Positions 20,533-59,355 of a DNA stretch of 64,000 nucleotides are shown piece by piece. A program made the position numbers and the translations under genes. The notes below the pieces were generated by a model, which ran no database searches, was not told the DNA's origin, and saw nothing but the letters and a program-made list of their open reading frames with translations. This stretch comes from Okamejei kenojei. Taxonomy: Eukaryota. How positions within the stretch are numbered: the stretch's first letter is position 1; each line of letters opens with the position of its first letter. Location: NCBI GenBank assembly GCA_035221665.1, contig CM069142.1:6014001-6078000 (forward strand). The letters run 5' to 3'.

Positions 20533-20653
20533 GTCTCGACCTGAAACATCACCTATTCCTTCGCTCCATAGATGCTGCCTCACCCGCTGAGTTTCTCCAG
20601 CATTTTTTGTCTACTTTCGATTTTTCCCAGCATCTGCAGTTCCTTCTTAAACA
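20533..20653 (+). mobile_element. Penelope pLTR-derived short insertion
   Basis: GTCTCGACCTGAAACATCACC...GATGCTGCCTCACCCGCTGAGTTTCTCCAGCA...GTTCCTTCTTAAACA. Confidence 0.85.
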
Positions 20654-20896
20654 AAATCTCAATCTAATTGGTTTCCACAACTGACAGATTACATTGTCAG
20701 CAGCAAATGCAATATATAAAATTCTGTGGAAGTAAATCACCACATCACCTGGAATGTAAATTTGCAGCCTTTAATGATTAAAAGGGAGGAGGTTTAAAGG
20801 CAGTGGTTTAATTTCCTGCAGTTGCAAGGGCTGGTGATAAGAGGAGATGTGGAAATTGATGGAAAGAGAAGACCCAACAAAGCACCTGAGAGGGAA

Positions 20897-21120
20897 TGTT
20901 TAAGAAGGAACTGCAGATGCTGGAAAATCGAAGGTAGACAAAAATGCTGAAGAAACTCAGAGGGTGATGCAGCATCTATGGAGCGAAGGAAATAGGCAAT
21001 GTTTCGGGTCAATACCCTACCTCGGAGTCTGAAGAAGGGTCTCGACCAGAAACGTTGCCTACTTCCTTTGCTCCATAGATGTTGCCTCACCCGCTGAGTT
21101 TCTCCAGCATTTTTGTCTAC
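20897..21120 (-). mobile_element. Palindromic (5'-inverted) Penelope pLTR insertion with hammerhead core
   Basis: Inverted arms with CTGAAGAAGGGTCTCGACCAGAAACGTT in the right arm. Flanked by CTGAGAGGGAA (20886-20896) and CCGAGAGGGAA (21121-21131). Confidence 0.85.
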
Positions 21121-23123
21121 CCGAGAGGGAATGGTCCCTTCAGAATGCTGAAGAGTGGAGACCATTTATCTGCTTCTGCCATCATATTGGAAATGATGAA
21201 CTGAAGGAAAATGTGGAAATTGGTGTGATGGAAGAAATGTTCAGGCAACTGCAGGAGATGTAGTCACTACCTGTAAAGCTCCTCCATTTTAATCATTCAA
21301 AGCAGCAAATGTACGTTCCAGTGATGCAGTGATTTACTTCCACTTGGAAAAGGTGCAGGGGAAATCCTATTCTTGTTCTGTTGGACAGAGCGGGTGAATA
21401 AGTGACACTAACAGAGCAGAGAATCTAATCAATGATGTGAAGGGAATGCCACAGCTACTGTAGAACATAGGAGAAGCACTGGTGTGGCAGAGCAGATGAG
21501 ATAAGAGAGAAAAAGTTACGGCTTCCACTGGTGGAAGTGAATTACAATAATTCCTCAACTCTTTAACCATAATCTTTCAATTAATTACTATTTCTGCCAT
21601 AAGCTTACATACTCAATTTACATTACCAATGGCTGGTATAAGTTTAATGATAATCAGCATTCATGATAGAGAGCTTTTTGTATACATGCCGCGCAAATGT
21701 TTGCAATCGTCCCAATATTTTTTTTAATTCTTCCATGATAAAATTACACAATGAGATAGTAACAGAGGAATCCAATTCTCACTTGTGTTATTTTGGCCGT
21801 CAATTAATGGTCTATACATAGTCAATTTGAGATGAATGCAGAAAATATTTTCACAAAATGTTGATCCTTTTATGTTAAAAAGATTAAAACTAAAATGTTA
21901 GATAAAAAGCGAAAGTTACAATTATTTTATACCTAAATTAATTGACTGCAAACAATTAGTGAGATATCGTCAAAAATTATTTCAATACATGTTCAAGGAT
22001 GTGTTTTCAAACAGCATGGAAAATAATGGGCATATTTAGCACTTCTGACACCCTAATGGGAGAGGAACACATCCATTGCAGTGGAGCAGCACTAATTTGT
22101 ACTAATCACATGTACTAAACAGTTATGAACACAGCACTCGTTAATAAGTACTTGGCAAGCAAAAAGTGTATTTTTCCAAACAAGTTGTGCTTTAATCAAA
22201 ACAGGTGCAGCCCCATTTAACAATCTATACAAAGCCACCATGTTGCCATAATTAAACAGGCAGATGTCTTTGCTGAGGAGGTCAAAGTCACAATAAAATT
22301 TGCTACAGAACATGACCACAAAGCAAGCAACAACAATCACGGCATCTTATTAACAGTAGAAACTAACCAAAAAATCCCCTTCTGCCCCAACAGACTTTGT
22401 GGATATTGTTCATACGGCTCAGTTCTTTAGTTTCCTGTAGCACAAAAAGCAATCAGAAATGATGGCTGGTTAACATTTATCAAGAATACAATTAACTGTT
22501 TTTAAATCATAAAATAACTATGCAATTATTCATTCTGGCAAGTTAAACTTTTACCAGATTGCATAACATCTGTGATTGCTCATTAGTAGTCACAGGTGAA
22601 AAGCATTCAGCAGCAAAAACTCAGATTAGACAGTTTAAACGACGAGTATAATATTACACTAGAGGAGCAGTCAAGTTGGGGAGGAGAGAATCACAACTTC
22701 AGGTTATTTACGTCCCAGATGAAAATCAAAAAGAGCAGATGCAAATGCCATCATGGCTTTTTAGTACACCCGAAAATTAATTTCAATCAACATAATGAAC
22801 ATTTCTGAATTATATTTATACAATGCTCAAAATATACTGCAAGAGATTATAAACAGAAAACAAATGGAGGAAGTGAAGATTTACATGATGCACCTTGCTC
22901 ATTTTATATTGTGCTACCCAGCTGCAGCCATTAATACCAATTTCTGCATAAATTTGTAGTATGTAATGTCCCTCCTTAGGTACTTTCAATCTGAAACCAA
23001 TTTCTTACAGCAAACTGAAAATGCAGGAGGCATCAGATGCATTGAGAAACTAGATTTTAAAAGATTTGACTGCTAATCAATAAAGACTAATGTGAAGAAT
23101 TCATACAACGTTTACAAATAATA

Positions 23124-23221
23124 AGGTAGACACAAAATGCTGGAGTAACTCAGCGGGACAGGCAGCATCTCTGGAGAGGAGGAATGGGTGACATTTCGGG
23201 TCGAGACCCTTCTTCAGACCA
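23124..23221 (-). mobile_element. Penelope pLTR-derived mini-insertion with hammerhead core
   Basis: Minus strand GTCTGAAGAAGGGTCTCGACCCGAAATGTCACC. Exact 11-bp flanking repeat TACAAATAATA (23113-23123, 23222-23232). Confidence 0.88.
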
Positions 23222-23349
23222 TACAAATAATATATATCCCCTTTAAACCCAAAATGCATAGACAAAGCAGCCCAGTAGCTATGTCAAAAATAATATTTTA
23301 TCCAATTAAAATGTTCTTAATGTCACAGAAATCAAGAAATCCAAGGGTG

Positions 23350-24350
23350 AAATTTTTCAACATTCAGTAAAGGAAAATCAATGGTAAGCAAAGGAAAAGT
23401 AGAATATGAGAGAGAGCTAGCAAGAAATACAAGTTTCAATAGATTTATAAAACAAATTAACATATTAGCAAAAGTTAACATGGGTCCCTTACAATCAGAA
23501 ATATGAGAAATTACATTGGAGTAAATAGGGAAATTAAACAAACATGTTTCAACTATATTCTCACAACAAGGCATGGAAAACCTTGATAATGGGGAAAAAA
23601 GTGAGCAAATGTAGGGCAGAGAGGGAACAGCATTAGTGGTGAAGGGAAGGGGGGGGGGGGAGGGGGGGGAGGGGAAATGTAATGGTACTGGAGAAATTGA
23701 CAGGCCCAAAAACCAATTAATCCCCAAATTTAAAAGTTGGCTTTGAGATTGTGACTGGTTGTCACCTTCACAATTCAAGAACAGCTCCTCGCTGGAAGTT
23801 AACAACTTTAACTAAGCATACAAGGCAGAAATAAAATAGTTGGCCTGGGGCAAGTAACAGGGAGCGTGCTGCAACTCATTACTCAGAGTCAATAACATCA
23901 TCCTTGAAAAATCATAGGCTTGGGCAGAATTAACATGGATTTATAAAAGGGAAAATCACATCTGACAAGTCTGTTGGAACTCATAGGTTCTATCTGTCAG
24001 GATGGGGGGTGCACCAGTCAACAGGGCGCATCTGGGCTGTCATGTTGTTATGGTGCCACACAAAAAAACCCAGTAAAATTACAATGAACAAAATATTAAC
24101 AGAGACAGTGGGTGGGTAGACGATTGGTATGGATTGAGGATTGCTTAATGGACAGAAAGAAGGCAGTGGATTCAGACAGCTCATGCTCAGGTTTAGATGT
24201 GATAATGGGATGCCACAGATCTTGGTGTTGGAAATGCTGATTTTCACAATCACCACCCTGAGTGGGCTGGTGGAATCATGAATAATTGTATCCAAATTAG
24301 TCAAATGTAGCAAACAGGAACCCAGATTGATTCTTGGCATGGCGGGCTTG
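23350..24350 (+). mobile_element. Old, fragmented CR1 LINE
   Basis: Patchy similarity to the reverse complement of the CR1 ORF at 35330-35794 and to CR1 RT motifs (CATGGATTTATAAAAGGGAAAATC, TGGATTGAGGATTG). Confidence 0.6.
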
Positions 24351-24884
24351 TCATATTTATTACATATGTAGCGAACATTAATCTAAAATTCATCATCATG
24401 GACAATTTAGTCTATCAAACACACGCAAACATTGAGGATTGTGGGCGAGCCAACCAAATTTACTTATTCTTGAACAACAATTAATCCCATTATCTACAGC
24501 TTCAAAAACAGTTTCCATGTATTTTCCTCAAAACTAAATAGATCCTAATTCATTAGCCATGTAAAAAGATTTCAATCGAGTACTGATTTTCCAACTTATA
24601 ATTCACGTGAAATATATATACACAAAGTAAAACGCAACAACGATTCTGAAATGAACAAATAACTCACATTGTACGATAAGATCAAGAGGAAAAAACACAA
24701 ATTTCATAATGTTTATTGGTGTGTTAGTGGGAGATAATTGGATGCTACAGTGGACTTTAACTATAAATGGTTTACTTGCATGAAATAAAATAATTTACAC
24801 TTTCCTATCTCCATTATTTGAAGCACATACAGTGTAGCATTGTACACTGATCAAATACATCTTGCAAGAGAGGTGTATTTGAAA

Positions 24885-24985
24885 TGTTTAAGAAGGAACT
24901 GCAGATGCTGGAAAATCAAAGGTAGACCAAAATGCTGGAGAAACGCAGCGGGCGAGGCAGCATCTATGGAGCGAAGGAAATAGGC
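24885..24985 (-). mobile_element. Penelope pLTR-derived fragment (3' part only)
   Basis: TGTTTAAGAAGGAACTGCAGATGCTGG...GGAAATAGGCG, nearly identical to 20897-20999. Confidence 0.85.
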
Positions 24986-26021
24986 GTACATGTTTATTGA
25001 GTTACTGTTTCTTACCTACACATTTATTGAACGACAGTCTATTTTATATTTCACTGAAAAATTAGTTACACATTTTGAAATTAATAAAGTTTGCAAGACT
25101 GAAAAGATCAGGTTTTTTTTTAAGTGCATAACATTTTGCACAGTTACCATTTCCCAGGGCACCTATTGGGACATATAATCAAATAATGAAGATAGGTTCC
25201 ACTAACTTTAAAACAAAATGCAGCATGTGATCTTGATTGCTTTTCTCTCGTTCTGCTCAAACTGCAGAGAAGTTTTTAACATGGGAAACTTTATCAAATC
25301 TGCATTCTGAACTGACACCATAGTCTTTTCTGTGGCAGTGAGCTAGCTCTGGTCACCCAATATATATTAACTGAGGAAGATAATACTTGGATTCCCAGTC
25401 TAGTCTATGCAATATCAATGTTATGATAGTGTTTTCTTGGTGGCAGGTGGGGTGCTGATTTGGAAGTGTTATTGAAGAATTAATTTCACAAACTTTTGCA
25501 TCGCCAATTCTGCTATTTCGGACTCATCTCGACACTTACTAAAAAATGGTTTTGTATCAAACAGGAGGCACACAGATGTTAGAAGATAAGTAACAATTTA
25601 ATTCAAAGCTTTTACACGTTTTTAATTGCCAGCATCAGTAACTGATTCCTTCAACATTTTAGTTGATATTTGATTTATTAGGCATAAAGCAATAGAGTAA
25701 TAAAAAACCTTAATAGCAGAAGCCATACATTTTGCAGAGAATAAACCTTGCTTTATCTTTATAATTATATAGAACTTAGAAATCCAGGTGTTTTTATGCT
25801 GCCTCAATAAAATTATTTTAAATATTGGAAGATTTCTACTACTGCTCTCATAGAATTTTCAATGGCACAAAATAGTGGTAAATTGTGTTTCCACTTTAAA
25901 AATATTATAAGGTAGACACTTGACCACACCAACAAAGGTCACACAATTCCCCTCACTTCACCTCATAAATAATTAGCTAATTAGCTCCCGAAACCATAGC
26001 AACTCTTTTCAGCCTTCAGAT

Positions 26022-27013
26022 CAGGGGTCAGCAACCTACAGCCCCCGGGCCGAATGCGACCCGTAACTCGAAATCATCCGGCCCGCTGGCTTTTTTTTCT
26101 GCAGTCAACCGGCCCGCGGTCATGTATTTTTTTCCCCGCACCTAGTTGGATTGGCGGGCTCTGTTCCACTGATCTAAAAGTGCAGTTGCATTTGCAGCGC
26201 CTGCAGTGTCTGATGCTCAGCGCGCCCCGGAACCATTCCGGCCAGCAGGCGGTTTTTTTTTTCCCGCATCAAGTTGGATTGGTGGGCGCTGTTCCACTAT
26301 TTTTGATACAATCCTATTTGCTGATACACAAAAAAAAAAAAAAAAAAATCATGACTGATGTAATCACACGAACAGGACAAAAGGCGGACCTAGAACAAGC
26401 GCAGAAAGTGAGCATGCCAAAACTAGGGCGAGTCCCCAGGGCTGGAAGACAACAGCTTTCCTCCGAAGCAACAGCGACAGTGGCCATCCACTGTGGTGCA
26501 GTTGGCCGAGCAATGCCACTCTCGTAACGACTACTCCGCAGAACCTGCCACGCCTTCAACCCTGGAAATGTGTGAAGTGGGAATCAGCTGTAAAAGAGCA
26601 GCACCGCTGGGGGGGGGGGGGGGGGGGAGTTCCTTTCCACAGCGTGTGGGGAGTCTGGCCCGGGTCAGCGCGGTCTGGGCTGCACAAAGTAGCAAACTTG
26701 GCTGGGTTGCCAGAGGTAAAGTTGCGGGGAGGGCAGGAGCGTTGAAGAGGAGGGGGTCGAAGGAGCCAGACGCGGTGTCATTCAGCACAGGGGCGTGGTG
26801 GTTGGTGGGTAGCTACTGGGCGGAAAGCTGCATGCTCCGACCCGGGCTCTCTCTCTCTCTCTCCCCCGTTATGTGATCTCCCTGAGCCAGGATGTCCCCG
26901 TCCCTCAGACCTGACCCGCACAGCGCATTGTATAAATAGATATATCAACGTTTATTTGATGAGGCCCTCCAACCGCTCATAGACATGGTACCCGGCCCCT
27001 ATGCCGACCCCTG
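26022..27013. mobile_element. Non-autonomous hAT/Charlie DNA transposon
   Basis: TIRs CAGGGGTCAGCA...TGCCGACCCCTG; 8-bp TSD CTTCAGAT / CTTTAGAT; no transposase ORF. Confidence 0.88.
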
Positions 27014-27617
27014 CTTTAGATACATCTCTCTTAATTGCAGTTTTGATGCAGAGGACTGAACATGTGGAAGAGATAATTTTTGGTGCTAATGTGCAGCCAA
27101 ATTTAATTTTTCTCAGTACAAACTACTTAGAAAAATGAATTGTATGCAACCCAAGGTTCATTGGTTTATTTTGTGTTCAATATAATACAGTGCAAAGATT
27201 GCACTTTGTTCAAGTCATTACATTTTAATAAATCCAAGTTTTGACAGACATTTTGTCTGATGTGCCAGTTTACACAGTAAGAAACACTATGTTTGAAAAT
27301 GTAAACGATTATACAGGTTTTACTGATTTGCATTGCAAGTTTGTCTTAACATCATTGGGTGTACTAAAAGGCCATGATGGCATGACGACTTGATACATTT
27401 TACTGATTTGCTACCCTTTTCTTTGCAATTACCTGGTTTCCGAAACCAAATCAAATTCATCAAATGGTAACTGAATGTGGGTTATGCTGCTACACTGATT
27501 AAACTGGATATAGGTGTTTTAGCATCTTCATAATGGAAGTGTCTGCAAACATACAGCCATTAAATAATTGAGACAAACTTTTTCAACTGAAAGCATATAA
27601 TAGAATCATAGTAATTT

Positions 27618-27945
27618 ATAAGTAAGTAAGTTTGCCAAGTGTTCACATACAAGGAATTTGCCTTGGTGCTCCGCCCACAAGTAACAAGTAACATAGTGAC
27701 AGTTACGAATGACTCAGAAAACACTAAACATTAATAATAATAAAACATTAATGATAAAACACCATTGATTAGGCATGTGAACCAACAAAATACCAGATTA
27801 AAGGGAGGCTACAGATTTTTGGCTGTTGAGTACATGTGGATAAAAACTGTTTTTATGTCTGGCTGTGGCAGCTTTGACAGTCCGGAGTCGCCTTCCAGAG
27901 GGAAGTGATTCAAAGAGTTTGTGGCCAGGGTGAGACGGGTCAGAC
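27618..27945 (-). mobile_element. Rex1 3' end
   Basis: SDPSHPGHKLFESLPSGRRLRTVKAATARHKNSF and 3'UTR, near-identical to 58110-58400. Confidence 0.88.
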
Positions 27946-29179
27946 ACCAGTAAGTCCCCGTCCTGGTCTACACCAGTAAACCAGGTTACATGGCCGTTCA
28001 TGTTAATGCTGGCCAATGAAAATCTATTTATACTAAACCTACATTTTGGATCTTAGCCCAGAATGCTATATATCAAGTGCTCATGCAGAAACATTTTTTT
28101 TAAATGTAATAATGTTTTCTACCATAATAAATCTTTCATGCAATGTTCCAAACCCCTAGTAGTCTTGGGATGATATCTCCCCCCAACTTCCCTGTAATCC
28201 TTTCTAACCTTAAATCTTACCTTAAATTTAAGCACTATAATTAGAAAGTTTTACAAGAGAGGGATTTTTATAAAGTCTTGACCTCAAATAAATTAATACA
28301 CCTTGATAAAATCTTCACTCAGCTTCCTCAATTCCTGTAAGAAATATCCACACCCAGGCTTTCCTCGGAAGTGGAATTCTCTAGCCCTCACTCTCTAATA
28401 ATTACTGCAGGGTCTCTATCGCAGCTTTCTATAACGTGATCAATACTGTGTAAAGTAATCCAACCACTGGTGGACTAACTGGCAAGTTGTATATCATTTC
28501 AATTCTTACTCTAAAGTAAGCGGATGGATGCATTTTAGTTGGGATTTTTTGTTGTTGACCTTTATCATTACTGGAAGAAGTGCTGCATGCATGCATACAA
28601 GCTTACTCCATATGTACACTGGAATAAAAGGAAAAGCAAGCCATTCAACACCTCACATCTGCTCCACCATTCAATATTATGGCTGACGTTTTACATCAAT
28701 GCAATTTTCTCCCCAACCCCGCATCCCTCAATTCATTTAATATTCATAAACTATAATCTACTCTAGGAATAGACTCAGCACCTGAGCCAACACATATCTC
28801 TTAGGTAGAGAATTCCAGAAATTCATGTACCCAAGTAGAAATGTATTTTCATCTCAGTCCTGAAAGGTCAACCTGTTTTGTAGAGAATTCCAGAGTTCCT
28901 AGCTAAGGGAAACATTACCCTTGCATCTATTTGGTCAAGACCAATAAGAATATTGCACGTTTCAATGAGATTAATTTGAACCTAATATATAGAAACTCTT
29001 AAATGTAATAAACCCCACTCTCCTGTAGATATGCACAAATCCTAATATTCTCCGTTAAATGTGGAAGTCAGAGGGTTGGAATCAAAAAAATAGATTTGTA
29101 TGGTTATAACTAGCCATCCACATTCATACACTTCTTGTTAAAATTCAGATGGAGAAATAAATTCCACCACGGGGGAAAT

Positions 29180-30850: not shown

Positions 30851-33800
30851 GACTTCCGGTGGCGCTAATGGTGGAGTAGGGTGAGTGCCAGCTAGCTCCA
30901 TGTGAAAAAAACAAAAAAAAACGGGAATTAAATAAAGAACTGACCTGCAGAAATCGCTCCGGCAGCCTGCGTGACGTCATCAGACCGCGACTCTGGAGAC
31001 CTAATGTCGGTAGCACGCTCGCCCACAAAGGAACCGACTAAAAAAAAATTACAAGAGGAAAACAACCGAAGGAGGAAGTAGGCCCGATTGAAGCCTCGGG
31101 CTCAGTTTTAACGTCGTCCCAGGAGGACGTCTCAATGGCCCAGAAGACAAAGATAAAGAAAAATGAAATGGACGAACTTCGCAACTTCATCACAAAGGAA
31201 ATTGCAAGTATAAAAGAAGAATTGATAAGCTTTAAAAATGAATTGAATATTAAAGAAATACTGAAAAGTCTTCAAAAAGAGATAAAGAAGACTTCTTAGA
31301 GTTTGAAAATATAATGACTAATCTTGTGCGTGTGAAACTGACTAATATGAAGGAGGAAATGTCAGTAAATTTCGACTCACAAATCAATGAAGTAAACGAG
31401 AAAATTAAGTCGAATGAAACCAACTTTAATGATAAACTGGAGTCGACCTTCACTACAATGCATCAACAAATGGGGGAGCAAGCTGACGCCATAACTCACT
31501 TGGAAGAAACTACAGAGACACTCCTTGCCGAAAACAAGCGTTTATCAGATTTACTGCATAAAGTAACTGAAAAATGTATTGAATTAGAGGGCCGTCAGAG
31601 AAGATAGAATTTATAAATTGTGGGTGCTCGTGAGGGCAAAAAAGGAAATAAAGATCTACGTGACTTTGCCGCAGACTTATTAAAAAAAGTCTTGAATTTA
31701 GATCAAAAGCCCTTATCAGGGCGGGAACACATAGTTCTTGGATGTCGCTCGGGGACGCCCCCCCCCCCCGAGGCAGCGAAGGTCCAATACGATCATGTTT
31801 TGGAGGATATCATGAAAAAAATTGCTGGCACAAGAAATCTTATGCTTGATGGAGACAAAATCAGCATATTTCGAGATTACCCTGCAGAGGTGGTCAGAAG
31901 GAGAGCGTATTCAACGAGACAAGAGGGATTCTAAAGAAGATAGACAACTTGAAATACGGATTGCTGTACCCTGCAAGATTGAGAGTCACTTATCTGCAGA
32001 AGGAACAGTTTTTCACTGATCACAAGAAAGCATTGGCGTATGCCCAGAAGATAGTGGGTTCGAGTGAGGACTGAATAACATTCATATAATATCGTCATCT
32101 TGCTGAGAATAAATGGAACTTTAATTCGCTTTATTCAAGGCCTAATGAAAGCTGATAATGACAACTGTGCAGTCCCTCCTGTTATGGACATATAATTCTA
32201 ATATTTTAGTACTAATTTTTACTAACAATTACTAATCATTAAAAACACTTGTTCTTATTTTTGGAATAATTAGTTAAAAAAGTGAAATGTAAAAAAAGGT
32301 ATAATTTAGATATCTTATTAATTGGAATTTGTTATGTTCTTCCTTTTTTTACATCAGACTAACACTTGACTAATAATTAACTAAGAGAGTAATAGTCTCT
32401 CACTATATGATTACTAACACTCTGGACCAAAATAGTTTTAATTTAATCCCGTAAATTACTCATATTCAATTTTTTTTTAAAGCGTGGAGCTAGGAATATA
32501 TATTTTTTAATCTACGGAAGTCCTTAGATGGTCAGCCACGTTAGTGTGGCTAGCACTAACTACACTAAATTTAGATGTAGTTTCCTTTTCCTTCTTACAC
32601 TTTATTAATTTTTTATTTTTTTACTTTTTGTATTTTTTACTTAATTACTATTTTAAACTTGAATTAATTTACAAATATTATTTGTGGAGATGTGTCCGTG
32701 AGGAAGATTTATTTGAATTAGATTTACAACTCATCTGTCCTGTGTTCGGGTGGAATGTCGGGTTTACGGTGCTGAGCTATCTGCTCTTTTATAGACCACC
32801 CTAACCACAAGATACAAGACGTAAATAGAAAAAACGGGGGTCAAGGAATTACTTTTTGTAGTTGGAATGTTAAGGGAATTAATGAGTCAATCAAGAGAGG
32901 TAAGGTATTAGCACACTTAAAATCACTCAAAGCAGACATAACTTTTCTTCAAGAGACCCACCTTAAAAACGACGCTCAACATAGATTGAAAGCAAAATGG
33001 ATCGCTGAAACATATCACTCTTCATTCTCTCATAAGGCCGGAGGTGTCGCAATTTTAATTCGTAAAGGTATACCTTTTAAACACATATCAACTGTAGCGG
33101 ACATCAATGGTAGATATATTATACTAGTGGGTGTATATTAAAAAAAAGTGATTTTTCTCAATGTTTATGGACCAAATTTTGATAATCCTATGTTTTTTAA
33201 GAATATACTTAATACTATCCCGGAGCTCACACAACATAATTTGATAATCGGTGGAGATTTAAATTGTTCACGAGATTCCTATCTCGATAGATCATCAAGA
33301 CAAAGAAAAGCAAAATCCAAGACAAGCGAATTATTAAACTCATACATTAATACCACCAATATCAAGGATGTTTGGAGAATTGAAAACCCATCTGGAAGGC
33401 AATACTCATTTTACTCATCAGTGCATAAAACCTATTCAAGGATAGACTACTTTTTAGTAGATTCTAAATTTATCCCATTTACTTATAATTCGAAATATCA
33501 TAACATTATAATTTCGGACCATGCTCCTTTAACATTTATGATCAAACTAAGTGGAATGACTGATAAGCAGACACAATGGAGACTTAATCCTCAAATTTTA
33601 AATGATAAAGCATGTTACGAATATCTTATCAAACAGATAAATGTTTTTTTGAGACAAATGACTGCCCTGAAATTTCTGCCTCCCTTCTTTGGGAAACATT
33701 TAAAGCATTTATACGAGGAAGGTTAATCTCCGCACAAGCCTTTCGTAATAAAGGGAACCGCGCCAAACAACTGGTATTGGAAATGGAAATAACGCAATTA

Positions 33801-35154
33801 GATATGGAAAATGCAATCGCGCCTTCTATGATAATACATAATAAATTTGCTGCACTCAAATATAAGTTAAACCAAATATACTCAGACCAAATCATAAAAT
33901 TTGATCAAAAGACTAAACAGTTACACTTTGAATTTGGTGATAAACCACAAAAATTACTAGCACGCCAACTCCGGAAACAGGAAGGGGAAAAAACAATATA
34001 TAAAATTAAATCAGATACGGGAGAAATATTAACATTACCCAAGGATATTAATGATAGATTCTCTCACTACTTACCATCAAACACTTTACTCAACCATAAT
34101 GGCAGTGGGTTCTGCAGGAATGGAATTATTCTTACAGAATTGTAACCTTACCGGTTTAGACATGAAAGAGAGGGAATTATTAGGGGCCGAAATATACTCA
34201 AGCATTCATGCAACATAAACTCCCAGAAACTTACTTATATCAAAAACGGATAAGGACCTTGAAGACCCAGGTTCATATAGAGCAATTGCACTCTTAAACA
34301 CCGATCAGAAAATAATAACCAAAATTTTAGCATAGATTAAGCTTAATGATTCATAAATTAATACACCCCTATGAAACTGGCTTTATTCCAAAACATTATT
34401 CATATTATAATCTGAGACGATTATTTAACATTATATACTCAAATCGAATAGCTAATGTAGATTTAGCAGTCATTTCGCTAGATGCTGAGAAAGCATTCAA
34501 TCAAGTTGAATGGCCCTATTTATTTTCGGTGATGGAACATTTTCAAATAGGTGAGAAGTTTTGTACTTGGGTTAAGCTTCTATATACCAACCCAACAGCC
34601 AGAATAATGACAAATCAAATGTTATCAAAAACAATTGATTTATCTAAAGGTTGTAGACAAGGATGCCCGCTATCCCCGTTACTATTCGCCTTTGCTATTG
34701 AACCACTAGCAGAAAGAGTTTGAGATATTAAATCTGGAAAAAATTAGATTTGTCTTAATTGACAAACCAGAATTATTTACTAGAAATTGGTCTCCGTTCA
34801 TAGATTATTTGAAGGGGTAGAATGGGCCAGCGCTGATACCCGACGGATTCTTGAACCCAGGACTAGATGAATAGTTATGCTTTCTTACCTACGGACCTAT
34901 CTCCTAAGTTGCATTATGGATAGTTTATTCTATTTTTCTAATTTTCTTTTCTTTTTCTTTATTTTTTCTATCTATTAAAAAATAAAAATTAAGAGTCAAT
35001 GTTAATATGTAACCGATAAATGAAGACCCCAGCTACATTGGTAGTGGAGTCCCTGGAATCCTGAATATTTAATATGTAACCGTTTAACAAAGTTTGTAGT
35101 GGTTCGGACTATGATATGTACATGCCTCTATTAAAATTTAACTTTAAAAAAATA
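30851..35154 (+). mobile_element. L1 LINE with 5'UTR, ORF1, ORF2 (APE + partial RT), internally deleted
   Basis: Starts GACTTCCGGTGGCG. ORF1 ~31004-32075 (coiled coil, LEGRQRR, IFRDYP, LLYPARL). ORF2 has SWNVKG, FLQETHL, NVYGPN, GGDLN, YSRIDY, ISDH, SLDAEKAF, QGCPLSP, then jumps to C-terminal LEKIRF. A-rich tail; ~18-bp TSD. Confidence 0.95.
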
Positions 35155-41425: not shown

Positions 41426-41426
41426 C

Positions 41427-41576
41427 TGATGTCTGAAGAAGACAATCAGTCTGAAGGGTTTCGGCCCTAAACGTTGCCTATTTCCTTCGCACCATAGATG
41501 CTGCCTCACCCGCTGAGTTTCTCCAGCATTTTTGCCTACTTTTGATTTTCCAGCATCTGTAGTTCCTTCTTGAACA
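41427..41576 (+). mobile_element. Penelope pLTR-derived insertion
   Basis: CAGTCTGAAGGGTTTCGGCCCTAAACGTTGCC...GTTCCTTCTTGAACA. Confidence 0.85.
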
Positions 41577-42664: not shown

Positions 42665-43979
42665 AATCAATAATGCATTACATTTTCAAGTGAAAATGAA
42701 AAAAATGGTAGTAACAGGAAATCTGAAATCTAAACAGAAATGTTAGACATACCCAGATCAGGCAGCATTAGTGGAAAAGGAAACTATCAGAACCGAAGAA
42801 AAGATAAAACAAGTTGATCTAAGTAGCAGAGAAGGTTGGACGGGAGGGGTGAGGAATGGTTAATGGGAACAAAGGGAATGTGCACACTAGGGTGAAATAA
42901 TGTAGTCATTAAATGGGAGATCAAGCATCTTTATCGGTGAATTATGTTGCTAATGTTGTGAAGCCTGGTCCCAGTGGTATAGTCTGGTCCACTGGGACAT
43001 GTCCAGAAGGCCGGAAAATACAAAAGAGAGAAAAAAGGAAAAGAATACCAGGCAAAAATGGCCAGTCTATGTACAAAGAGAAAGAAGGTGTAAACAATCT
43101 AAAGGTGGAGGACTGAGTCCTGCAGGCTGGAACTTGTGCAGACAAAATAAATGAAGTTGCTTGAACATGCTTTGGGCCTTGTGCAACAGTTCAGGAAGCA
43201 CAATCAGAGAGGGAACAAAATGACAAACTGATGCAGGTACTCAGGACACAACCTCTTAAACCTTTCATTCAAAGCAAGCATCTAATCAATTGCCAGGTAT
43301 CAGTAGAACTTTGAGCATACAACTTCCTGGTCCATAACTACTCTGGATTAGCAGCATTCAGGATGGCATTAATAGCATCAGGTTTAAGCACAGAAGCAAT
43401 TCAAAATTGTGATCAATGCAGAAGGAACAACCACAGAAATCACCCATCAGCTTGTGCGTCATGCATCTCCTGTCAGATCAGTGGTAATGTTGCTCCGTTG
43501 GCCGCTTCAGTCATCTCGAAACACACAGAATCAGAGTGGAAGCCAATAATCCTTGATATCAACGGACTATCCAAGAAGAGTGACACACAGGACAACCTGT
43601 CTGTTGCATAGAAAGATATAATTCTGGTCATAATCCCACCTTGTATTAATAGCAGTCAAACCCATGACATCCTCTCATGGTGCATTCCCATTGCCCAAGT
43701 TTGTATGCTAGGTGTTCTCTTTTAAAAGCTTGATTAATAAGTATTAAGGGTCTGAAGAATATTTCTCCAGAAATATTGCCTGACCAGCTGGGCTTCTCCA
43801 GCACTTTCTGTCTTTTTTTGTAAACCAGCATCTGCAGTTCAGAGTGAATGGTATGGCCCTGGTGCGTGTAGAACAGAAGGATCTAGGAATACAAGTAGAT
43901 ATTTCCTTGCTAATGGTGGTGAAGAAGGCTTTTGGTAGACTTGATCAGTCAGAGAAATGAGTAAAGAAATTGAGATGTT

Positions 43980-48120: not shown

Positions 48121-48553
48121 TGAGTACTGGATTGGTTTGTTTTCATTTTCCTCTTATGGGAATTTTCCCTAAATTATATCCAAAATGTTCTTCTTTAAAA
48201 ATTCATCCATTGCTTGGTTAGTTTAATCTGCCATCCTTCACTATTTAACATAGACAGGAACTCCTCTCCTCTCCATCTACTTGAGATTTCTCCATAGCTA
48301 ATCTTAATTCCTACCCCACCAAGTATTCTCCCATTTGAGTACTGGATTGGTTTGTTTTCATTTTCCTCTTATGGGAATTTTCCCTAAATTATATCCAAAA
48401 TGTTCTTCTTTAAAAATTCATCCATTGCTTGGTTAGTTTAATCTGCCACCCTTCACTATTTAACATAGACAGGAACTCCTCTCCTCTCCATCTACTTGAG
48501 ATTTCTCCATAGCTAATCTTAATTCCTACCCCACCAAGTATTCTCCCATTTGA
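48121..48553. repeat. Near-perfect 215-bp tandem duplication
   Basis: 48121-48335 matches 48336-48550 except CCATCC/CCACCC; TGA microhomology at the junction. Confidence 0.95.
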
Positions 48554-50827: not shown

Positions 50828-51039
50828 GGTACACAAAAGGCTGGAGAAACTCAGCGGGTGCAGCAGCATCTAAGGAGCGAAGGAGAAAGGCGACGTTTTG
50901 GGTCAAGACCCTGAAGAAGGGTCTCGACCCGAAACGTCGCCTATCTCCTTCGCTCCTTAGATGCTGCTGCACCCGCTGAGTTTCTCCAGCCTTTTGTGTA
51001 CCCTCGATTCTCCAGCATCTGCAGTTCCTTCTTTAACAC
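50828..51039 (+). mobile_element. Palindromic (5'-inverted) Penelope pLTR insertion with intact hammerhead core
   Basis: CTGAAGAAGGGTCTCGACCCGAAACGTC at 50911-50938 between near-perfect inverted arms. Flanking direct repeat TTGGAGTGAATGAG (50814-50827, 51040-51053). Confidence 0.9.
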
Positions 51040-51319
51040 TTGGAGTGAATGAGACTTGCTACAATTTGGGAAAAAAGGCAGTTTTAGGTTTCTGTTGTCA
51101 GAGTCAAAGAGGCAAGTTATTTGCACCACCGTGGCTTTACACACACATACACACACACAAACTCCATTTGTCTGTATGAATTCCACATCCTTCTGCTAGC
51201 CTGCAATGCTAATCTTGAGAATTCATGTTACCGCAGAAAAATAGTTAAAGCAGGCCCAATCTTATGCAAAGAAAGCACATGTTCGTTTTTTTTCCCCCAA
51301 TTGTATTATTACCAATTTT

Positions 51320-51935
51320 AGCTTGGTTTGTTTATTATTGGTACAGGAAAAAGCTTTTGGTTATGTGCTATCCAGTCAAAGACTATACATGATTACAATC
51401 AAGCCGTCCACAGATAAAGGAAGAAGAATATGTTTAGTGGAAGATTAAGTCTGATTAAAGATAGTTCAAAGGTTTCCAATGAGGTAGATGGGAGGTCAAG
51501 ACCACACTACAGCTGATGAGAGGACAGTTCAGTTGCCTGATAACAGTTGAGAAGAAACTGTCCCTAAATCTGGAGGTATGTGTTTTCAAACTTCTGAACC
51601 TGTTGCCTGACTGGAGAGGAGGTGAAGAAAAGAGTGTGACTGTGGCGACACTGGTCCTTGATTTTGCTGGTTGCCTTGCCGAGGAGCATGAAGTATAGCA
51701 TGAAGTGTAGATTGAGTCAATGGGAGGATGGCTGGTTTGCATGATGGACTGGACGGCGTCCACAACTCTCCACAATTTCTTGTGGTCTTGGACGGAGTTG
51801 TTCCCAAACCAGGTTGTGATGTATCCCAATAAAATGCTTTCTGTGGCGCATCGTTAGAGGTTGGTGAGGCTTGTTTCGGGGCTTGCCGAACATTCTAACC
51901 CTTCTAAAGAAGTAGTGGCGTTGGTGTTCTTTCTT
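51320..51935 (-). mobile_element. Rex1 3' part
   Basis: ITTWFGN..KKLWRVVDAVQSI..SGNRFRSLKTHTSRFRDSFF. Confidence 0.85.
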
Positions 51936-52309
51936 GGTCATAGTTTTGACAAGACAAGCAATATCGTTCATTTTGGACACATATGGATATTTGGACATGT
52001 GTGTATTTACTTTGATAAAAGTGTTTCCATTTATACGGACAAATTATGAATTGACCAGAATAAATGAGCTAACTGGACTCAATGCTTGGATCAATTAACA
52101 ACAGTGAGCAATACACATTGGAAAAAAATTCAATACATTAACTGGAATGTTTCATTGCTAACTTTTTTTTTGAGTGGGTCGGAAGACAAGTACATTTTGC
52201 TTACAATTCTCTTACGATTTTGTATCCTGCATTTCAAAACAATCAAACAAGTGCCATTAAATGTGCAATTGAGTGAACAATAAAGTGTTAACTGGCACAC
52301 AAATTAATT

Positions 52310-52575
52310 GATTGAATGGTATCGCATGGAAACAAACCCTTCAGCACACTGAATCTATGCCGACCATCGATCACCTGCTCACGCTACATCTATGTTATCC
52401 TACTGCACACCCACTCACTCCCTACACACCAAGGGCAATTTACAGAGGCCAATTCACCTAGAAACCCATGTGATCACAGGGAGAACATTCAAACTCCACA
52501 CAGGCAGTACCCAATGTCAGGATTGCATCCAGGTCTCTGGTGTAGAGACAGCACCTCTACTACCTACACCGCTGT
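52310..52575 (-). mobile_element. Degenerate HE1-like V-SINE
   Basis: GGGCAATTTACAGAGGCCAATT..CACAGGGAGAACATTCAAACTCCACACAG, the reverse of the V-SINE core. Confidence 0.7.
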
Positions 52576-54219
52576 CCAAACTATAAAAATAGAAATAATT
52601 GAATTAAGTCACTGATTAAATCCATACAAATGGCTGGAGAAGTGAAAATAATCCAACAGTTCCCACATAACTTTCCATTACTCTTTCCTTCCAAACTCTA
52701 AATTATACATTCACTCATCCCCAAAATCAAGGCTTATTATACCATGTATTGCTGTTTTATGCACAACACAGTGAAACTACTTTCCATTCTCCCACCATCT
52801 TGCATTGAAAAGGCCCAAACACAACCTCTCCGTTGTGGTTACAAATTTGAAACAAACCATCCAGATGGTTCATGAATATTATACTTTCAGGCTGGTAACC
52901 CAAAATAATAACTACGACATACACCAAAATTATGGTGCTCTTTAGTACTATTAATTAGGTCTTCCATCTATTCTCCTATATGACCATAAAGAAGTTATTC
53001 TGCTCTCTAGGTTTAGCCTACTTGCGACTAGACCAAGTGTTGGCTTCCAAGCCTTCAGATTGGACCAAAAGGTTTTTCAGCAAACATGGAGAAAGATTTT
53101 CACTCACAATCTTCTAAGGATAAATCAGATTGTTGAAACCTTTAAGCAAGAATGGGCAATAAATTATGTATGCTGGCATAATCCACATGCTAAAAATATT
53201 TTTCATGTAAAGATATCCATGATGTCTATACTAACCTTTTAATATCTTGGCACTCTTTAGTACTATTAATTAGGTCTTTCATCTATTATCGTATATGGGA
53301 AATGTAACAGCTCGACATGCATCCTTCTGAAGGATCCTGACATATCTCAACACAGCTACACTTAGAAGGACAATTTGGGGGAATTAGTAAAATAAGTATA
53401 GTAACCTATTACATTCCATATATAAACAAATGGCATTAGTTACGTCACTAGAAAAAAAGTTTTTCAGAAACAAGTATGCTGTGATAAATGGATTCATAAT
53501 CACATCTAAAGTAAATATTCCTTGAAATAGGACTAGATTCAAGGTACAATTTGTGGCATGTCCAAAATTGTACTTTCCCCATATTAATTCCACGTTTTAT
53601 ATATATATTAAAGCACCAAGTTACGGGCAGACATTAACATCGTGGTTTACATAAATTTACCCAAACACCATCTGATTAAAACTAACTTTATTGGATCTGT
53701 CAATATTTGATTCATGTTTTATTTTAATCCCTAAACCAGTGCCTGAAACATTATTTGAGATTACAATGAGACAAAATGTTGTATTGTTTTGCATGCTGTT
53801 AATCATTTTCTTCCTTATAATCAAAAATGAAACGTACAACTATAAAGATAGATATACTTTTAAAATACGACCAACTGCGCACATTTATTAATAAATGTGA
53901 TTAATCAAATTTAAGAGAGTTTAAAGCAGACTGCTTCAATAAATGCGGGCGTCACGCTTTATAAAATAAAATAATAAACTAAAACAATCAGTCAAGGCCT
54001 GGATTGCTCATTAAAACCTCGGGGCAAATTTTAATCAACATCTCCGCTCGCATTCGCCGTCATCCCAGCTCAGCAGCAAAAGTAATGAGGCAAGTCAAAA
54101 TAGTGAACACGAACACACACACACACCCCAAACGTGGACGTCTGTTATTAAACCTATTCGACTAAACATGAGGGGCGTTCCTGCCATTTAAAAACAAACC
54201 CTCTTCAGCCTATATTACA

Positions 54220-55400
54220 CATTGAGAGAGGGAGAGTTTGATGCTGCTCGCACACGCGGGGAATGTAGGGGAGGGAGGTTGCTGTTTGTTGTCCGAGGGC
54301 CGAGGCTCGGCGGGCCGAGCGAGCGAGCGAGCGAGCGGCCGCTGTGCCCTCACCAACAGCGTCCACTATTTCACCCCCTTTGCCCGCAGGCCGGCCGAGC
54401 ACTTGATCCCGAATCACCACAGGCCGCTTTCACTCACACCCAGAAACCAAGACAAGCGGCAAGAAAAACGTAAAAGCCCGCGCCTTGTTTTGCATATTTA
54501 TTTTTTTTATTATAAGTCGGAACCATCCTCCCCCTCGCTGCCTTTTCTCTCTTATTTGTTTTATTTTTTTTTCCCCCTTTCAAAAATTCCTGGCGGATTT
54601 GCGCTGGGTGGAAAGCGGCCGCTCTGGGCTGCGTTCCTGCCGGGAATAAACGCATTAAAGTTTTCTTTTCGCTCGCCCCGCAATCAAATACAGTAATAAG
54701 GCAAAATAAATTATGCTAAATGGAAATATGAATATGTAAAATTAGAGCCATTACCGGGCTTTTCATCTTTGGACGCTCCATCCGCCATTTTGAATATCAA
54801 TTCGCTTTACCCGGCCTCCCCCGCGCTCGCAGGCCCGGCGCCCGCTGGACGATCCCCCCCAACCCGAACCCCGCCGCTCCCCGGCTCCCCGGCTCCCCGG
54901 CTCCCCGCCCGCCGGCCCTCGCCGCCCCGCCGCCGAGCCGAGCCGAAACCCCCGCCGCCGCCCGCCCGCCAACGATTCGTTTTTTTTAATTCCCCCCCCC
55001 CCCCCCTTGAGGCGCGCCTTTGTCGACGCTTCGACGGAAACGGACGGAGATTGACGATCTGCTCGCTGCGTGAGTGTGTACGCGGGGTTTTTTTTTTATA
55101 ATTTAAAAAAAAAACCCCGTCGGTTTGCTCGTTTTTTTTTCAATGCGGTCTGAGGTAATTGTTATCGGTTTGCGGTGGAAGCACGGGGTTTGGTGTTTTT
55201 TTCCGGAGATTGCCGAGCGGTTCGGGCGCCGACGGGCCGTTGACCGCATTCGGTGGGTGTTTTTCCGGAGATTGCCGAGCGGCGCTCGGCGGCTGCTCGG
55301 CCGGAGGCTCATTAACTGCAGTCATTTGCTTGCATTGTATTCCGCTGTTTATTAAAATGATTCCTAATCGTTTTCTGCTGCCCACAGCGGAAACGGACGG
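54220..55400 (-). promoter_or_regulatory. CpG island / POU2F1 ubiquitous promoter and 5'UTR
   Basis: GC- and CpG-rich, non-repetitive block around exon 1 with GC-box-like tracts. A YY1-type motif CCGCCATTTT (54782-54791) overlaps the start codon. Confidence 0.85.
54755..54788 (-). CDS. POU2F1: POU2F1 (Oct-1) coding exon 1, MADGASKDEKP plus 1 nt (phase 1)
   Basis: Minus strand reads gatattcaaaATGGCGGATGGAGCGTCCAAAGATGAAAAGCCCG|gtaatg inside a CpG island. It resembles the mammalian Oct-1 N-terminus MADGGAASQDE and splices in frame to the exon at 12224-12289. Confidence 0.88.
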
Positions 55401-55914
55401 AAATTCACGAATGCATTGAACTGCTTTTGGTCGTGAGCTCTTTCTGCAGGAATTCTTCAGTGAATTTTGGGGGGGGTTTCATTCAGTGCTGGAGGTTCTG
55501 TTGTCAAGTGTTCAATGCTTTTACTGCACAAGCATTTTTATACTTGGTGATATTAAACAGTAGATGGACACACTTCTAATGAAACTCAACATTGCAACGG
55601 CGAGGTTTTCATTTGATATAATACTCCGGATTATGGTAAGGATGGCTTCACTGTGAAGAGACCCGATTTTGAATAAACTATTAATGAGAACTATTCAAAA
55701 AGTGAATGTGTGCAGATTTGTACTCCTGAGGTGGAACCAATTTGCTTCAATAAAAAGCGACAAAACCAGGAGCTTGTTAAAATACATCAGCTCAGATCCT
55801 GGAAATAAGAAGCGACTACACAAATATTAACAACTACAAAAAGTGGTTAAAAATCATCTTAAGTTCTATCTAAACAAAATAATTGTATTTTATGCCTGTT
55901 TTTTAAAGTTATAG

Positions 55915-56222
55915 AGTAGCCAGGATCGAAGGCCTGAGCTACAGGGAGAGGTTGAGCAGGCTAGGACATTATTCCTCAATAGTGCAGGAGGATGAGGGTT
56001 GATCTTCGAGAGGTGTATAAAATCACGAGTGGAATAGATAGATAGATAGATAGATTAGTGGAACCCAGAACCAGAGGACATAGGTTTAAGGTGAGGTGGA
56101 AAGATTTAATAGGAACCTGAGGGGCAACATTTTTTTATAAACAGGAAGGGTGGTGGATATATCAAACGAGCTACTAGAGGGGGTTGCTGAGGCAGGTACG
56201 ATCACAACTTTTAAAAGATAAT
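55915..56222 (+). mobile_element. CR1 3' part, tail resumes at 57320-57395 after the Penelope insertion
   Basis: GGCCTGAGCTACAGGGAGAGGTTGAGCAGGCTAGGAC as at 29323; terminal GGGCATGTTAGTCGGCACGGGCAAGTTGGG..GAAGG. Confidence 0.8.
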
Positions 56223-57318
56223 TGGGAGTTCTTCCGTCTAGGCCGCATCTGCGTCCCAAATGAGATGTTCCAAACCAGGACATCTGAGATGTCCTCGTTC
56301 TTTAGGGAATGGGGTGGTTCCCCTCTTCCATCATATATGAGATCTTCACACGGGTCTCCTCAGTGTCCTGCAGCTCCACTCCTGCTGCCCCTACCTCCAG
56401 TCGCAACAGGAACAGAGTCCCCCTAGTCCTCATCTTTCACCAATTCAGCCATCGCATGCAGCACGTAATCCTTCTACATTTTCACCACCACCAACGGGAT
56501 CCCACCAGTAGCCACATATTCCCATCTCCACCGCTTTCTGCAGAGACCGTTCCCTCCGCAACTCCCTGGTTAACTCATCCCTTCCCACCCAAACCACCCC
56601 CTCCCTAAGTACTTTCCCCTGCAACCGCAGGAGATGCAACACCTGTCCCTATACCTCATCCCTCGACTCCATCCAAGGACCGTGACAGTCCTTCCCGGTG
56701 AGGTTCACTTGAACCTCCTCCAACTTCAGCTAATGTATCCGCTGTTCCTGGTGTGGTGGACTCCAATATATCGGAGAGACCAAGTACAGGCTCGGCAATC
56801 GTTTCGCCGAACACCTCCGTTCAGTCCGCCTTGGCCTACGTGATATCTCGGCTGCAAAACATTTTACCTCCCCCTCCCATTCCCACACTGACCTTTCTGT
56901 CCAGAGCCTCCTCCATTGTCAGAGTGAGGCCCAACGCCAACTGGAGGAACAGCACCTCATCTTTCGCTTGAGCAGCTTACAGCCCAGCAGTTTGAGTATT
57001 GATTTCTCTAACTTCAGGTAACCCTTGCTTTCCCTCTCACTCTATCCCTCCCCCATCGTAGGTTTCTGACTAGTTCTTCTGTCCTCCTGATTAAATATTA
57101 CTGATTGTATGCCTCCTTATCACTTCCCACTCAGCTAACAATGAACCACTCTACATTTCCTGAGCATCATCTGCTTTGATCTTTTGTTTCATGCCTTGCC
57201 CTTCCATGTCTCTAGATTCCATCTCCCCTAACTCTCAGTCTGAAGAAGGGTCTCTACCCGAAACGTCATCAATTCCTTCTCTCCAGGGATGCTGGCTGTC
57301 CCGTTGTTACTCCAGCAT
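56223..57318 (+). mobile_element. Penelope-like element (Neptune-type) 3' part: RT C-terminus, Cys-rich linker, GIY-YIG endonuclease, pLTR with hammerhead core
   Basis: FFRLGRIC..TRTSEMSSFFRE; TFPCNRRRCNTCPY; CIRCSWC..YIGETK..RFAEHLRSV; LEEQHLIFRL..IDFSNFR*. CTGAAGAAGGGTCTCTACCCGAAACGTC at 57240-57267. Confidence 0.92.
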
Positions 57319-57624
57319 TGAGTGCAGATGGGGCATGTTAGTCGGCACGGGCAAGTTGGGTTGAAGGTCCTATTTCCAAGCTGTTTGACTGACTCACCTG
57401 CGATTTAGATGGCAGAACCGAAGGCTTTTATTCTGAATGTTGTAGATTCAAGGGCCATTCGAGAGCACAAAGGATAAAGCTAGGACTCTAGTGAGTTATT
57501 GAGGGAATGCTACTCTGTTGGAGGTGGATAGATTCAAAGATTTATCAGCTAAAAATTGGACATAAATTTTATATCACATGTTCCTAGCCCAACCGTTAAA
57601 TTCAACACAGCGAACTAATGATGA

Positions 57625-58400
57625 AAGAAACCGCAAGTGACACAGCTGGCATCCTGGTGCCGTCGCAACAACCTGGAGCTCAATGCTCTTAAGACAGTGG
57701 AATTGACAGTAGACTTTAGGAGAGCTCCCCCTCCCTTCACCCCACTCACCATCAACAGCACCACAGTCACATCTGTGGAGTCTTTTAACTTCCTGGGAAC
57801 CATGATTTCCAAGGGCCTTAAGCGGGGGGGGGGGGGGGGCTACCATCGACTCCACAGTCAAAAAGGCACAACAGAGGATGTACTTCCTGTGGTAGTTGAG
57901 GAAGCACAATCTCCCACAGGCAATGATAGTCCAATTTAATACGGCCATCGTAGAGTCTTCTCCATCGTGGTCTGGTTTGGCTCAGCCGCCAAGCACGACA
58001 TCCAGAGGCTGCAGCGAATCATCCGATCAGCTGAGAAGGTCATTGGCTGCAACCTTCCCTCATTGACGAACTGTACACTGCAAGGGCCAGGAAGCGAGCG
58101 GGTATGATCATCTCTGACCCCTCTCACCCTGGCCACAAACTCTTTGAATCACTTCCCTCTGGAAGGCGACTCCGGACTGTCAAAGCTGCCACAGCCAGAC
58201 ATAAAAACAGCTTTTTTTCCACGAGTAGTTATTTAATTCACATGTTTAATCAATAATGTTTTATTATTAATGTTTAATGTTTTATGTATCATTCCTAACT
58301 GTCACTGTATGTCATGTTGTCACTTGCGGGCAGAGCACCAAGGCAAATTCCTTGTATGTGAATACTTGGCCAATAAACATATTCATTCATTCATTCATTC
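57625..58400 (+). mobile_element. Rex1 3' part
   Basis: WCRRNNLELNALKTVELTVDFRR, SHPGHKLFESLPSGRR; (ATTC)n tail. Confidence 0.9.
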
Positions 58401-58419
58401 AAGATACAAAAAACTTGAG

Positions 58420-59355
58420 CAAAACAAAGTGCTGGAGAAACTCAGCAGGCTAGGCAGCATCTGTGGAGGAGATGGGCAGACAACGTTTCGGGTTGGGACT
58501 TGTGTTTAGTTGATGAATGAAACAGTGGCTGGCAAGCCTAAATGCCAGGTATTAGATGTCAATTAGATCTAATTTTGGAAGAACAGCAGAATGTGCAGAC
58601 ACTGTTATGTTGCACATTTGCCGGATCTGACGGGGTACCATGTTCTACCCAAAGACATGTTTAGACTCGGCACCATCTCCCAATGCCAATTGTCCAATTG
58701 TCTTTCTGCTGACTGGTTAGTACGCAACAAAAGCTTTTCATTGTATCAGTGCATGTGACAATGAACTGAACTGAACTGATTTGTGGCACGTCATGACTTG
58801 GCTTAGCTGCAACTTCTTCCATGCAAAGACTGGGAAGAGCATGTCATCACCCCAGTTTGATTTCCACACCCTCATCATCAGTTTCACTTCCCCTATTATC
58901 ACCCGAGGTTGAACATTTTCATTTCCAAAATGTATCTTCTACCATCTGTTATTTTGCCTATCTCCATCCCTGCCTCAAACCAACTGCTGCTCTGTCATAC
59001 AGTCTGAAGAAGGATCCATACATAAAACGTCACATATCCATGTTCTACAGAGATGCTGCCTGATCAGCTGAGTTACTCCAGCACTCTTGCTTTTTTCTTT
59101 GCTTTGTCATCCATAGCTACATTTGTTCATCTCAACCAATGGGCACGTTTGTATTTGGTCTCTCATCCTCCGCATTCTGTAAACATCAGGCGTGCACAAA
59201 GTGTCTCGATCCAATATCTCACCTATCCATGACCTGAAGACAGGTCTCTACCCGAAACATCACCTTTTCCTTTTCTCCAGAGATGCTGTCTGTCCCACTG
59301 AGTTACTCCAGCTTTTTGTGTCTATCTCCCGAGATGATGCCTGATCTGCTGAGTA
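58420..59355. mobile_element. Cluster of degenerate Penelope pLTR fragments (58420-58500 minus; 58999-59085 and 59200-59355 plus)
   Basis: CTGAAGA..GAAAC and GATGCTG..CTGAGTTACTCCAGC motifs. Confidence 0.75.

Follow-up and report, generated by a model that had tools for sequence, protein, structure and literature searches.

Minimal hammerhead ribozymes have been described in the pseudo-long terminal repeats (pseudo-LTRs) of Penelope-like elements, and these elements are the closest counterpart to a family of short repeats that we analysed in 64,000 nt of the Okamejei kenojei genome (contig CM069142.1, positions 6,014,001 to 6,078,000 of the forward strand; this whole stretch is called the window below). 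The published pseudo-LTR motifs have the same CUGANGA box, unpaired base before stem II, G-C first pair and palindromic mini helix III as the repeats here, the Drosophila virilis motif likewise has a 2-bp helix I, and thousands of single motifs occur per genome, some close together on opposite strands (PMC4209133). The Anolis Poseidon element PAc starts reverse transcription internally in vitro at two sites bounding its tail, which match the two 3' end sites found here; both target strands are nicked and extended, the RNA substrate is uncleaved and the protein is predicted to be dimeric, while the steps after internal initiation are left open (PMC11167929). Endonuclease-containing (EN+) elements of Adineta resemble our repeats in their head-to-head pseudo-LTRs with a tail at one end, target-site duplications (TSDs) of ~10 bp and palindromes at the joints (PMC3846280; overview in PMC8557442). 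Animal non-LTR retrozymes are, like the repeats here, short non-coding type I hammerhead repeats akin to pseudo-LTRs (PMC7229834; 10.64898/2026.07.22.740005), and circular templates have been proposed both for them and for Penelope elements (PMC4209133, PMC7229834). How pseudo-LTRs are regenerated, and how tandem and inverted insertions form, has been posed as an open question (PMC2377424, PMC8557442).

The short repeats, which are 100–135 nt long and which we will call stubs, are probably run-off complementary DNAs (cDNAs) from the 5' end of the parent RNA, as judged from where their copies begin and end in the genome. Throughout, the C of CUGAAGA is numbered +1, and the two 3' end sites, ~34 nt apart, are S (~+95) and T (~+129, the tailed end). 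We propose that reverse transcriptase would start inside the parent RNA ~95 or ~130 nt from the 5' end and run to this terminus, which would be the 5' edge of an uncleaved hammerhead, with a capped start at -4 to +3. The run-off cDNA could then be joined to the target, giving a solo stub, or anneal to a second cDNA made from the other target strand, giving a palindrome that usually has one short and one tailed arm, or jump to a different parent transcript at its A-tailed 3' end, giving a mini-tandem.

The copies were surveyed with a profile of the terminal 145 nt of the repeat, in the window and in 120 unselected 10-kb stretches from the 37 largest contigs (1,198,500 bases), and 5' edge positions were taken from the profile alignments with an accuracy of ~4 nt. 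An initial annotation of the window had listed a dozen short repeats as one family inserted independently with TSDs. All 12 sites are matched by the profile (16 matches, with none in a reversed-sequence control), and TSD scores of at least 9 were reached by 23 of 88 solos and 24 of 74 palindromes in the sample, compared with 0.6 and 0.8 for shuffled pairings, so both parts of this description are upheld. The TSDs of sampled insertions are 8–19 bp long, mostly 10–16 bp. The sample contains 487 ends, which extrapolate to ~1.1 million ends and ~0.9 million insertions genome-wide: 186 arms of head-to-head pairs, 234 unpaired short copies, 64 long copies reaching into the 3' untranslated region (UTR) or the open reading frame (ORF), and 3 at the edges of stretches. 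The window copies are as follows.

10255–10383, strand not assigned: rearranged old head-to-head copy without an intact core.
20529–20653, plus strand: solo stub from ~+7 to the tailed end T, without CUGANGA.
20897–21121: head-to-head palindrome, minus arm to T and plus arm to S; plus-arm core at 21029 with broken stem II.
20888 and 21123: TSD of the 20897–21121 palindrome, 11 bp, exact.
23124–23220, minus strand: solo stub spanning -2 to S; helix III of its core at 23217 carries a CpG change.
23113 and 23222: TSD of the 23124 stub, 11 bp, exact.
24885–24986, minus strand: solo stub from +28 to T, without a core.
41432–41576, plus strand: solo stub up to T; its 5' end is repeated over a short length in front of it (41431–41443), likely a restart at the 5' edge.
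43749–43840, plus strand: degenerate stub with an internal deletion.
50828–51038: young head-to-head palindrome, minus arm to S and plus arm to T; intact minimal core at 50911–50938.
50814 and 51040: TSD of the 50828–51038 palindrome, 14 bp, exact.
56220–57320, plus strand: 5'-truncated long Penelope-like copy with a broken C-terminal ORF (Cys linker, GIY-YIG), 3' UTR and minimal hammerhead at 57240–57267.
58420–58500, minus strand: solo stub to S, without CUGANGA.
58999–59098, plus strand: solo stub from -4, with decayed stem II.
59200–59358, plus strand: stub with a mutated core at 59234, preceded by a short fragment on the same strand and followed by a 34-nt repeat.

Three stand-alone copies had been noted to carry TSDs, and these are indeed exact over 11, 11 and 14 bp, but two of the three copies are head-to-head palindromes and not single units. 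At the remaining nine window sites no convincing TSDs were found, only matches of 4–7 bp.

The parent had been named from the long copy at 56220–57320 as a GIY-YIG Penelope-like element, which a walk upstream from this copy through the genome bears out. It led to an uninterrupted element on contig C9 (locus L211; C and L numbers are our labels for contigs and loci), with a unit of 3935 nt, an open frame of 1190 codons, a pseudo-LTR at both ends and a 12-bp TSD. Within the frame a reverse transcriptase domain (RVT_1, E 2.5e-4) is followed by GIY-YIG (E 1.6e-3), both below the curated Pfam cut-off, as is the GIY-YIG match of the window copy (E 0.03). The single ORF with these two domains, partial-tandem pseudo-LTRs, inverted 5' copies, optional 30–40-bp tail and TSD together characterise an EN+ Penelope-like element. 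The linker before GIY-YIG reads C-x4-C-x2-C, and since a CX2-5CxxC linker in this position marks the Neptune/Nematis clade (PMC8557442), its sequence points to an element of Neptune/Nematis type. The stub corresponds to the first 130 nt of the parent unit, with the ORF start directly behind it. The ORF also contains a long proline-rich low-complexity stretch of variable repeat length between its N-terminal domain and the reverse transcriptase (L211:4820–6300).

Within 12 nt around +1 lie 223 of the 420 short 5' ends of the sample (125 of 234 unpaired copies and 98 of 186 arms), and the density of ends is ~19 per nt at this edge, compared with 0.1 per nt upstream (48 ends over ~470 nt). A drop of more than 100-fold rules out that the stubs arose by random 5' truncation, although this process does describe the 64 long copies, whose ends are spread 55–1800 nt upstream. 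The length distribution is thus discrete, as initially anticipated, with one sharp 5' edge and two 3' ends. Among 102 solos with good anchoring, 75% retain the parent base at -1, 67% at -2, 55% at -3 and 31% at -4, the last being near background. Starts at the cleavage site of the hammerhead can be dismissed, as just 3 of 234 unpaired starts are binned with the cleavage product; the window copy at 24885 starts there, nearly alone.

Are the stubs a lineage of their own, similar to short interspersed nuclear elements (SINEs)? In such a case they would have kept an internal promoter and start signal, would be transcribed from their own loci and would be mobilised in trans by the Penelope protein. 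The stubs do exceed long copies by ~6:1 in the sample, they have the discrete 5' and 3' ends of a SINE-like family, CAGT at their edge is conserved across subfamilies with diverged UTRs, and pseudo-LTR sequences are enough for trans mobilisation (PMC3846280). A 248-nt deleted unit, with the same joint unchanged on contigs C6 and C23, can be counted on the same side (35 further matches near this joint were left out of the inspection). However, diagnostic bases define six subfamilies that each include long, solo and paired copies (296 copies assigned, 68 unassigned), a short-only subfamily is absent, and the nearest-neighbour distances of 304 short copies are equal, at 0.116 from short to long (60 long copies) and 0.117 to size-matched short copies. 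Among 138 tailed copies no common downstream flank was found, other repeats aside, bases -5/-4 are lost in most solos, and the jump partners described below hold ORF-start sequence, which is missing from short loci. Because all six subfamilies have long members and the hammerhead core appears to decay neutrally, there is apparently no separate SINE lineage, and we regard SINE-like propagation as unlikely. The separate ribozyme-driven SINE- or retrozyme-like family suggested by the initial annotation is not borne out, since the subfamilies are all mixed, the distances are the same, and the stubs begin upstream of the cleavage site and do not form tandems. The 3' UTRs upstream of CAGT vary greatly between subfamilies (~110–310 nt), the segment from -4 to T being conserved (sample L061–L180). 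A downstream promoter element in register with the proposed start received no support.

The run-off interpretation makes the edge an RNA end, and joints between the edge and other parent sequence are informative here. A search with one jump joint as query returned 30 loci, two pairs of them overlapping, from which 26 distinct joints were parsed (L272–L300), leaving out three older-subfamily loci and one partial match. In these joints the parent part ends at +569 to +582 and is followed by filler that is A at 94 of 104 positions. An extra G stands directly before the first templated base in 20 of the 26, at starts -4, -3, +1 and +3, the query joint itself having none; at +3, a G precedes 25 of 26 starts among the jump loci. 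L274 and L285 each contain two different joints in series within one insertion. In a first sample of 30 ORF-start loci, five consist of a stub preceded by parent sequence that runs from the edge to +387 or +571–580. A second sample of 30 such loci, found via the tail/ORF junction, has similar joints at +198, +200, +204, +340 and +377. In many jump loci the ORF-containing piece ends at the same edge again. The edge is therefore a property of parent transcripts, because the jump partner contains ORF sequence and often ends at that edge. Cap copying and template jumping have been reported for other reverse transcriptases, and the joints of G and A-run suggest capped starts and template jumps. The L274, L285, L287 class lacks AATAAA near +569 to +582, and its structure suggests derivation from a short A-tailed transcript of the element's 5' end.

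The edge could alternatively be a barrier to reverse transcription within a longer RNA, formed by the ribozyme fold, a bound protein or a splice junction, in which case the stubs would be piled-up 5' truncations. The 5' strand of helix I lies at this edge, as does a pyrimidine tract that leads into CAG/T (the slash marking a candidate splice point), an intron ends at helix I in D. virilis (PMC4209133), and most ORF-start loci pass the edge. An enzyme would, however, be expected to stop before a structure and not after crossing it, folding of the parent 5' RNA disfavours the hammerhead (stem II pair probability 0.02), and joints with G and A-run at several starts resemble real RNA ends. No common exon stands upstream of 147 solos, which speaks against splicing onto CAG/T, and no joint from the donor-like site at +161, such as back-splicing would leave, occurs among the matches listed from sequencing-run contigs. 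A barrier thus seems to us quite improbable. The pyrimidine tract and CAG/T at -1, and the donor-like AAG/GT(A/G)TG at +161, which overlaps the likely start codon and is conserved across subfamilies (L212:350–362; L100, L149), are recorded as features of the element. The joints near +570 were also considered as splice products and rejected, as they lack a GT donor and are variable. The same edge recurs in the sequencing-run contigs, which come from several organisms and several of which are perhaps DNA: loose ends lie at -4 to -2, and there are jumps that return to the edge, although such contigs do not reveal RNA ends.

Several observations weigh against run-off from a capped RNA. In the unselected sample none of five starts at +3 has the extra G, which is confined to the young jump class, and in 42 solos AGT follows C 17 times, A 12 times, G 9 times and T 4 times, so a cap G is not detected in ordinary stubs. 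The starts differ as well, being mostly at +3 in the jump class and mostly at -3/-2 in ordinary stubs, and an untemplated C added by the enzyme would also yield an extra G. Among the first 30 ORF-start loci, 19 continue upstream of the edge, for 49 to more than 1370 nt, and only two with a continuing ORF begin at it. Finally, of 217 rare variants in palindrome arms, 24 have a mirror copy in the opposite arm, which allows copying from decayed short loci, as SINE-like propagation would have it, or gene conversion. The read-through in 19 of 30 loci means that a single linear RNA with inefficient transfer is insufficient, and therefore a second type of template is needed. Long copies and partial tandems would derive from a template on which the enzyme can move past the edge; a circle or a read-through multimer is its likeliest form.

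The palindromes carry further information on the reaction. One arm ends at S and the other at T in 69 of 94 pairs (46.6 expected, p 2e-6), and both arms belong to the same subfamily in 32 of 36 assignable pairs (55 examined), where 23% is expected. Their centres vary and use small palindromes at the edge and in stem II, so a single palindromic master was rejected, both outer ends also lying on start sites; the uniform centre of L001–L030 is an effect of query choice. The arm extending further 5' is the S arm in 13 cases and the T arm in 9 (n=22), and therefore fold-back of a single cDNA is not the general route, which excludes self-priming as the sole one. Under the run-off model, two cDNAs primed on opposite target strands, one per start site, would have their 3' ends joined to give the palindrome.

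What is the role of the ribozyme then? That the motif is the minimal hammerhead of a Penelope-like element, as first described, is clear from the core, stem II, unpaired base before it and palindromic helix III in the parent. The reading CUGAAGA-A-stem II-GAAA-CG-U-H with an intact core holds at 50911 and 57240 only, so that two of the 16 window matches keep the core, four stem II pairs and palindromic helix III. Elsewhere the CUGANGA box is absent at 20533, 24885, 43749 and 58420, and stem II or the core is broken at 21029 and 59234. Stem II, initially read as 5 bp with a 2-nt loop, is better described as 4 bp capped by a YYCG tetraloop (GGGU-CUCG-ACCC, or GGGU-UUCG-GCCC in another subfamily). 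The noted helix I of ~2 bp is confirmed as G-C followed by U-A or U-G, shorter than the 4–5 bp of a minimal type I hammerhead, and an extended helix I was rejected for want of a conserved extension. No Rfam hammerhead match was obtained up to E 10. The palindromes, including that at 50828–51038, fold as one long hairpin in which the motif is buried. Of 299 sampled copies 31 have an intact motif, namely 12 of 135 short ones, 9 of 101 arms and 10 of 63 long ones. The core is not preferentially conserved: outside CpG its conservation is 0.935, within the 0.91–0.96 of other invariant sites, and at core CpG sites it is 0.70–0.76. We infer that the ribozyme rides along in the stubs as a passenger and decays neutrally. 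Core positions are invariant between subfamilies, which fits constraint in active parents, but so are many downstream positions.

A family driven by its ribozyme, with small circles made by cleavage and ligation and then reverse-transcribed as in non-LTR retrozymes, is very improbable for the stubs, which are monomers or inverted pairs with uncleaved and decaying cores; no tandem with a period above 100 nt was found among the 487 sampled matches and none in the window. Five insertions outside the window nonetheless argue for such events (L306, L312, L319, L322, L325). They belong to the young subfamily, have two to three identical joints each with periods of 187–462 nt, begin in the middle of a unit and finish at S or T, and several of them are flanked by TSDs. 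They are head-to-tail tandems with a hammerhead in each unit, as retrozymes (units of 150–450 nt) are and the window stubs are not. From their structure these tandem minis look like copies of small circles, with local duplication as the alternative. The tandem mini-units (including L304) are deletion derivatives of the parent.

These observations can be combined, with considerable reserve, into a Penelope strong-stop cycle. In this cycle the start of transcription would disable the 5' hammerhead, run-off to the RNA end would produce the stubs, and circles made by the ribozyme would yield long copies, pseudo-LTRs and newborn retrozymes. If this is true, the genome holds about a million arrested intermediates together with the birth of retrozymes from their parent.

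The window also contains part of a host gene on the minus strand.

54756–54788, minus strand: first coding exon of the host POU-domain gene; copies to the left of it lie in the first intron.

The POU exons lie on the minus strand ~30 kb past the left edge of the window. The gene is presumably Oct-1 rather than another POU2 gene. The initial annotation had placed minus-strand copies in Oct-1 pre-mRNA; a POU-domain gene on this strand is indeed present, and the stub at 23124 is sense to its pre-mRNA, but this stub, the only minus-strand solo in that intron to retain a full core, carries a mutation in helix III. There is no indication that a ribozyme controls the POU gene. From the host's point of view the stubs are abundant dead repeats, the palindromic ones forming long hairpins in pre-mRNA. 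The split POU-domain exons are found next to the window (C12:5984032–5985216) and also on the small contig C522, possibly a haplotype duplicate. Elsewhere in the window, 48121–48550 consists of two 215-nt direct copies head to tail that are 100% identical, possibly a recent duplication or an assembly artefact. Inverted repeats at 8428–8732 (94-nt arms), at 12636–14109 around a transposase-like frame (13011–13502) and at 20749–21321, where 77-nt arms flank the 20897 palindrome, are likely remnants of DNA transposons. Decayed long interspersed nuclear element, tyrosine-recombinase and L1-like coding fragments, judged by eye from translations, lie at 491–2918, 7210–8055 and 32776–34723.

The stubs are thus ordinary in kind, being pieces of a known element that carry a known motif, and their ends are an unusually clear record of a transposition cycle. 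A run-off step would help to explain how terminal repeats are rebuilt in Penelope-like elements, and the copies give base-level predictions for the RNA start, for the use of both start sites on opposite strands in one insertion and for the jump to A-tailed 3' ends. New here is the stub edge joined, in rare copies, via an extra G and A-run to parent sequence ending at +569 to +582; no literature on the pile-up at the ribozyme edge, on such joints or on the family was found, in a search that had subscription journals and Repbase outside its scope. Through the tandem minis, small hammerhead units can be traced straight to a full-length parent.

In retroviral minus-strand strong-stop DNA and R2-type jumping there is precedent for a short cDNA that begins internally, reaches the RNA 5' end and is then transferred to an RNA 3' end; here synthesis would instead be target-primed, without a tRNA primer, and the short product is mostly integrated unchanged. 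Compared with the pseudo-LTR hammerheads of PMC4209133, whose available sections contain no map of single-copy starts or of G/A-run joints, the ends number about a million and stem II has only 4 bp. The Anolis PAc system (PMC11167929) differs in that our element is of Neptune/Nematis type with its ORF behind the tail, and in that the copies show the fate of the product after run-off, as solo, paired or jumped. In contrast to Adineta, the inverted arms here are bare, 100–135 nt long and very abundant, and their asymmetry points to two cDNAs, against the self-priming proposed there (PMC3846280). With respect to retrozymes (PMC7229834), the window stubs are non-tandem and their hammerheads are minimal and not canonical, while the rare tandem minis match retrozymes in size range and are derived directly from the parent by deletion.

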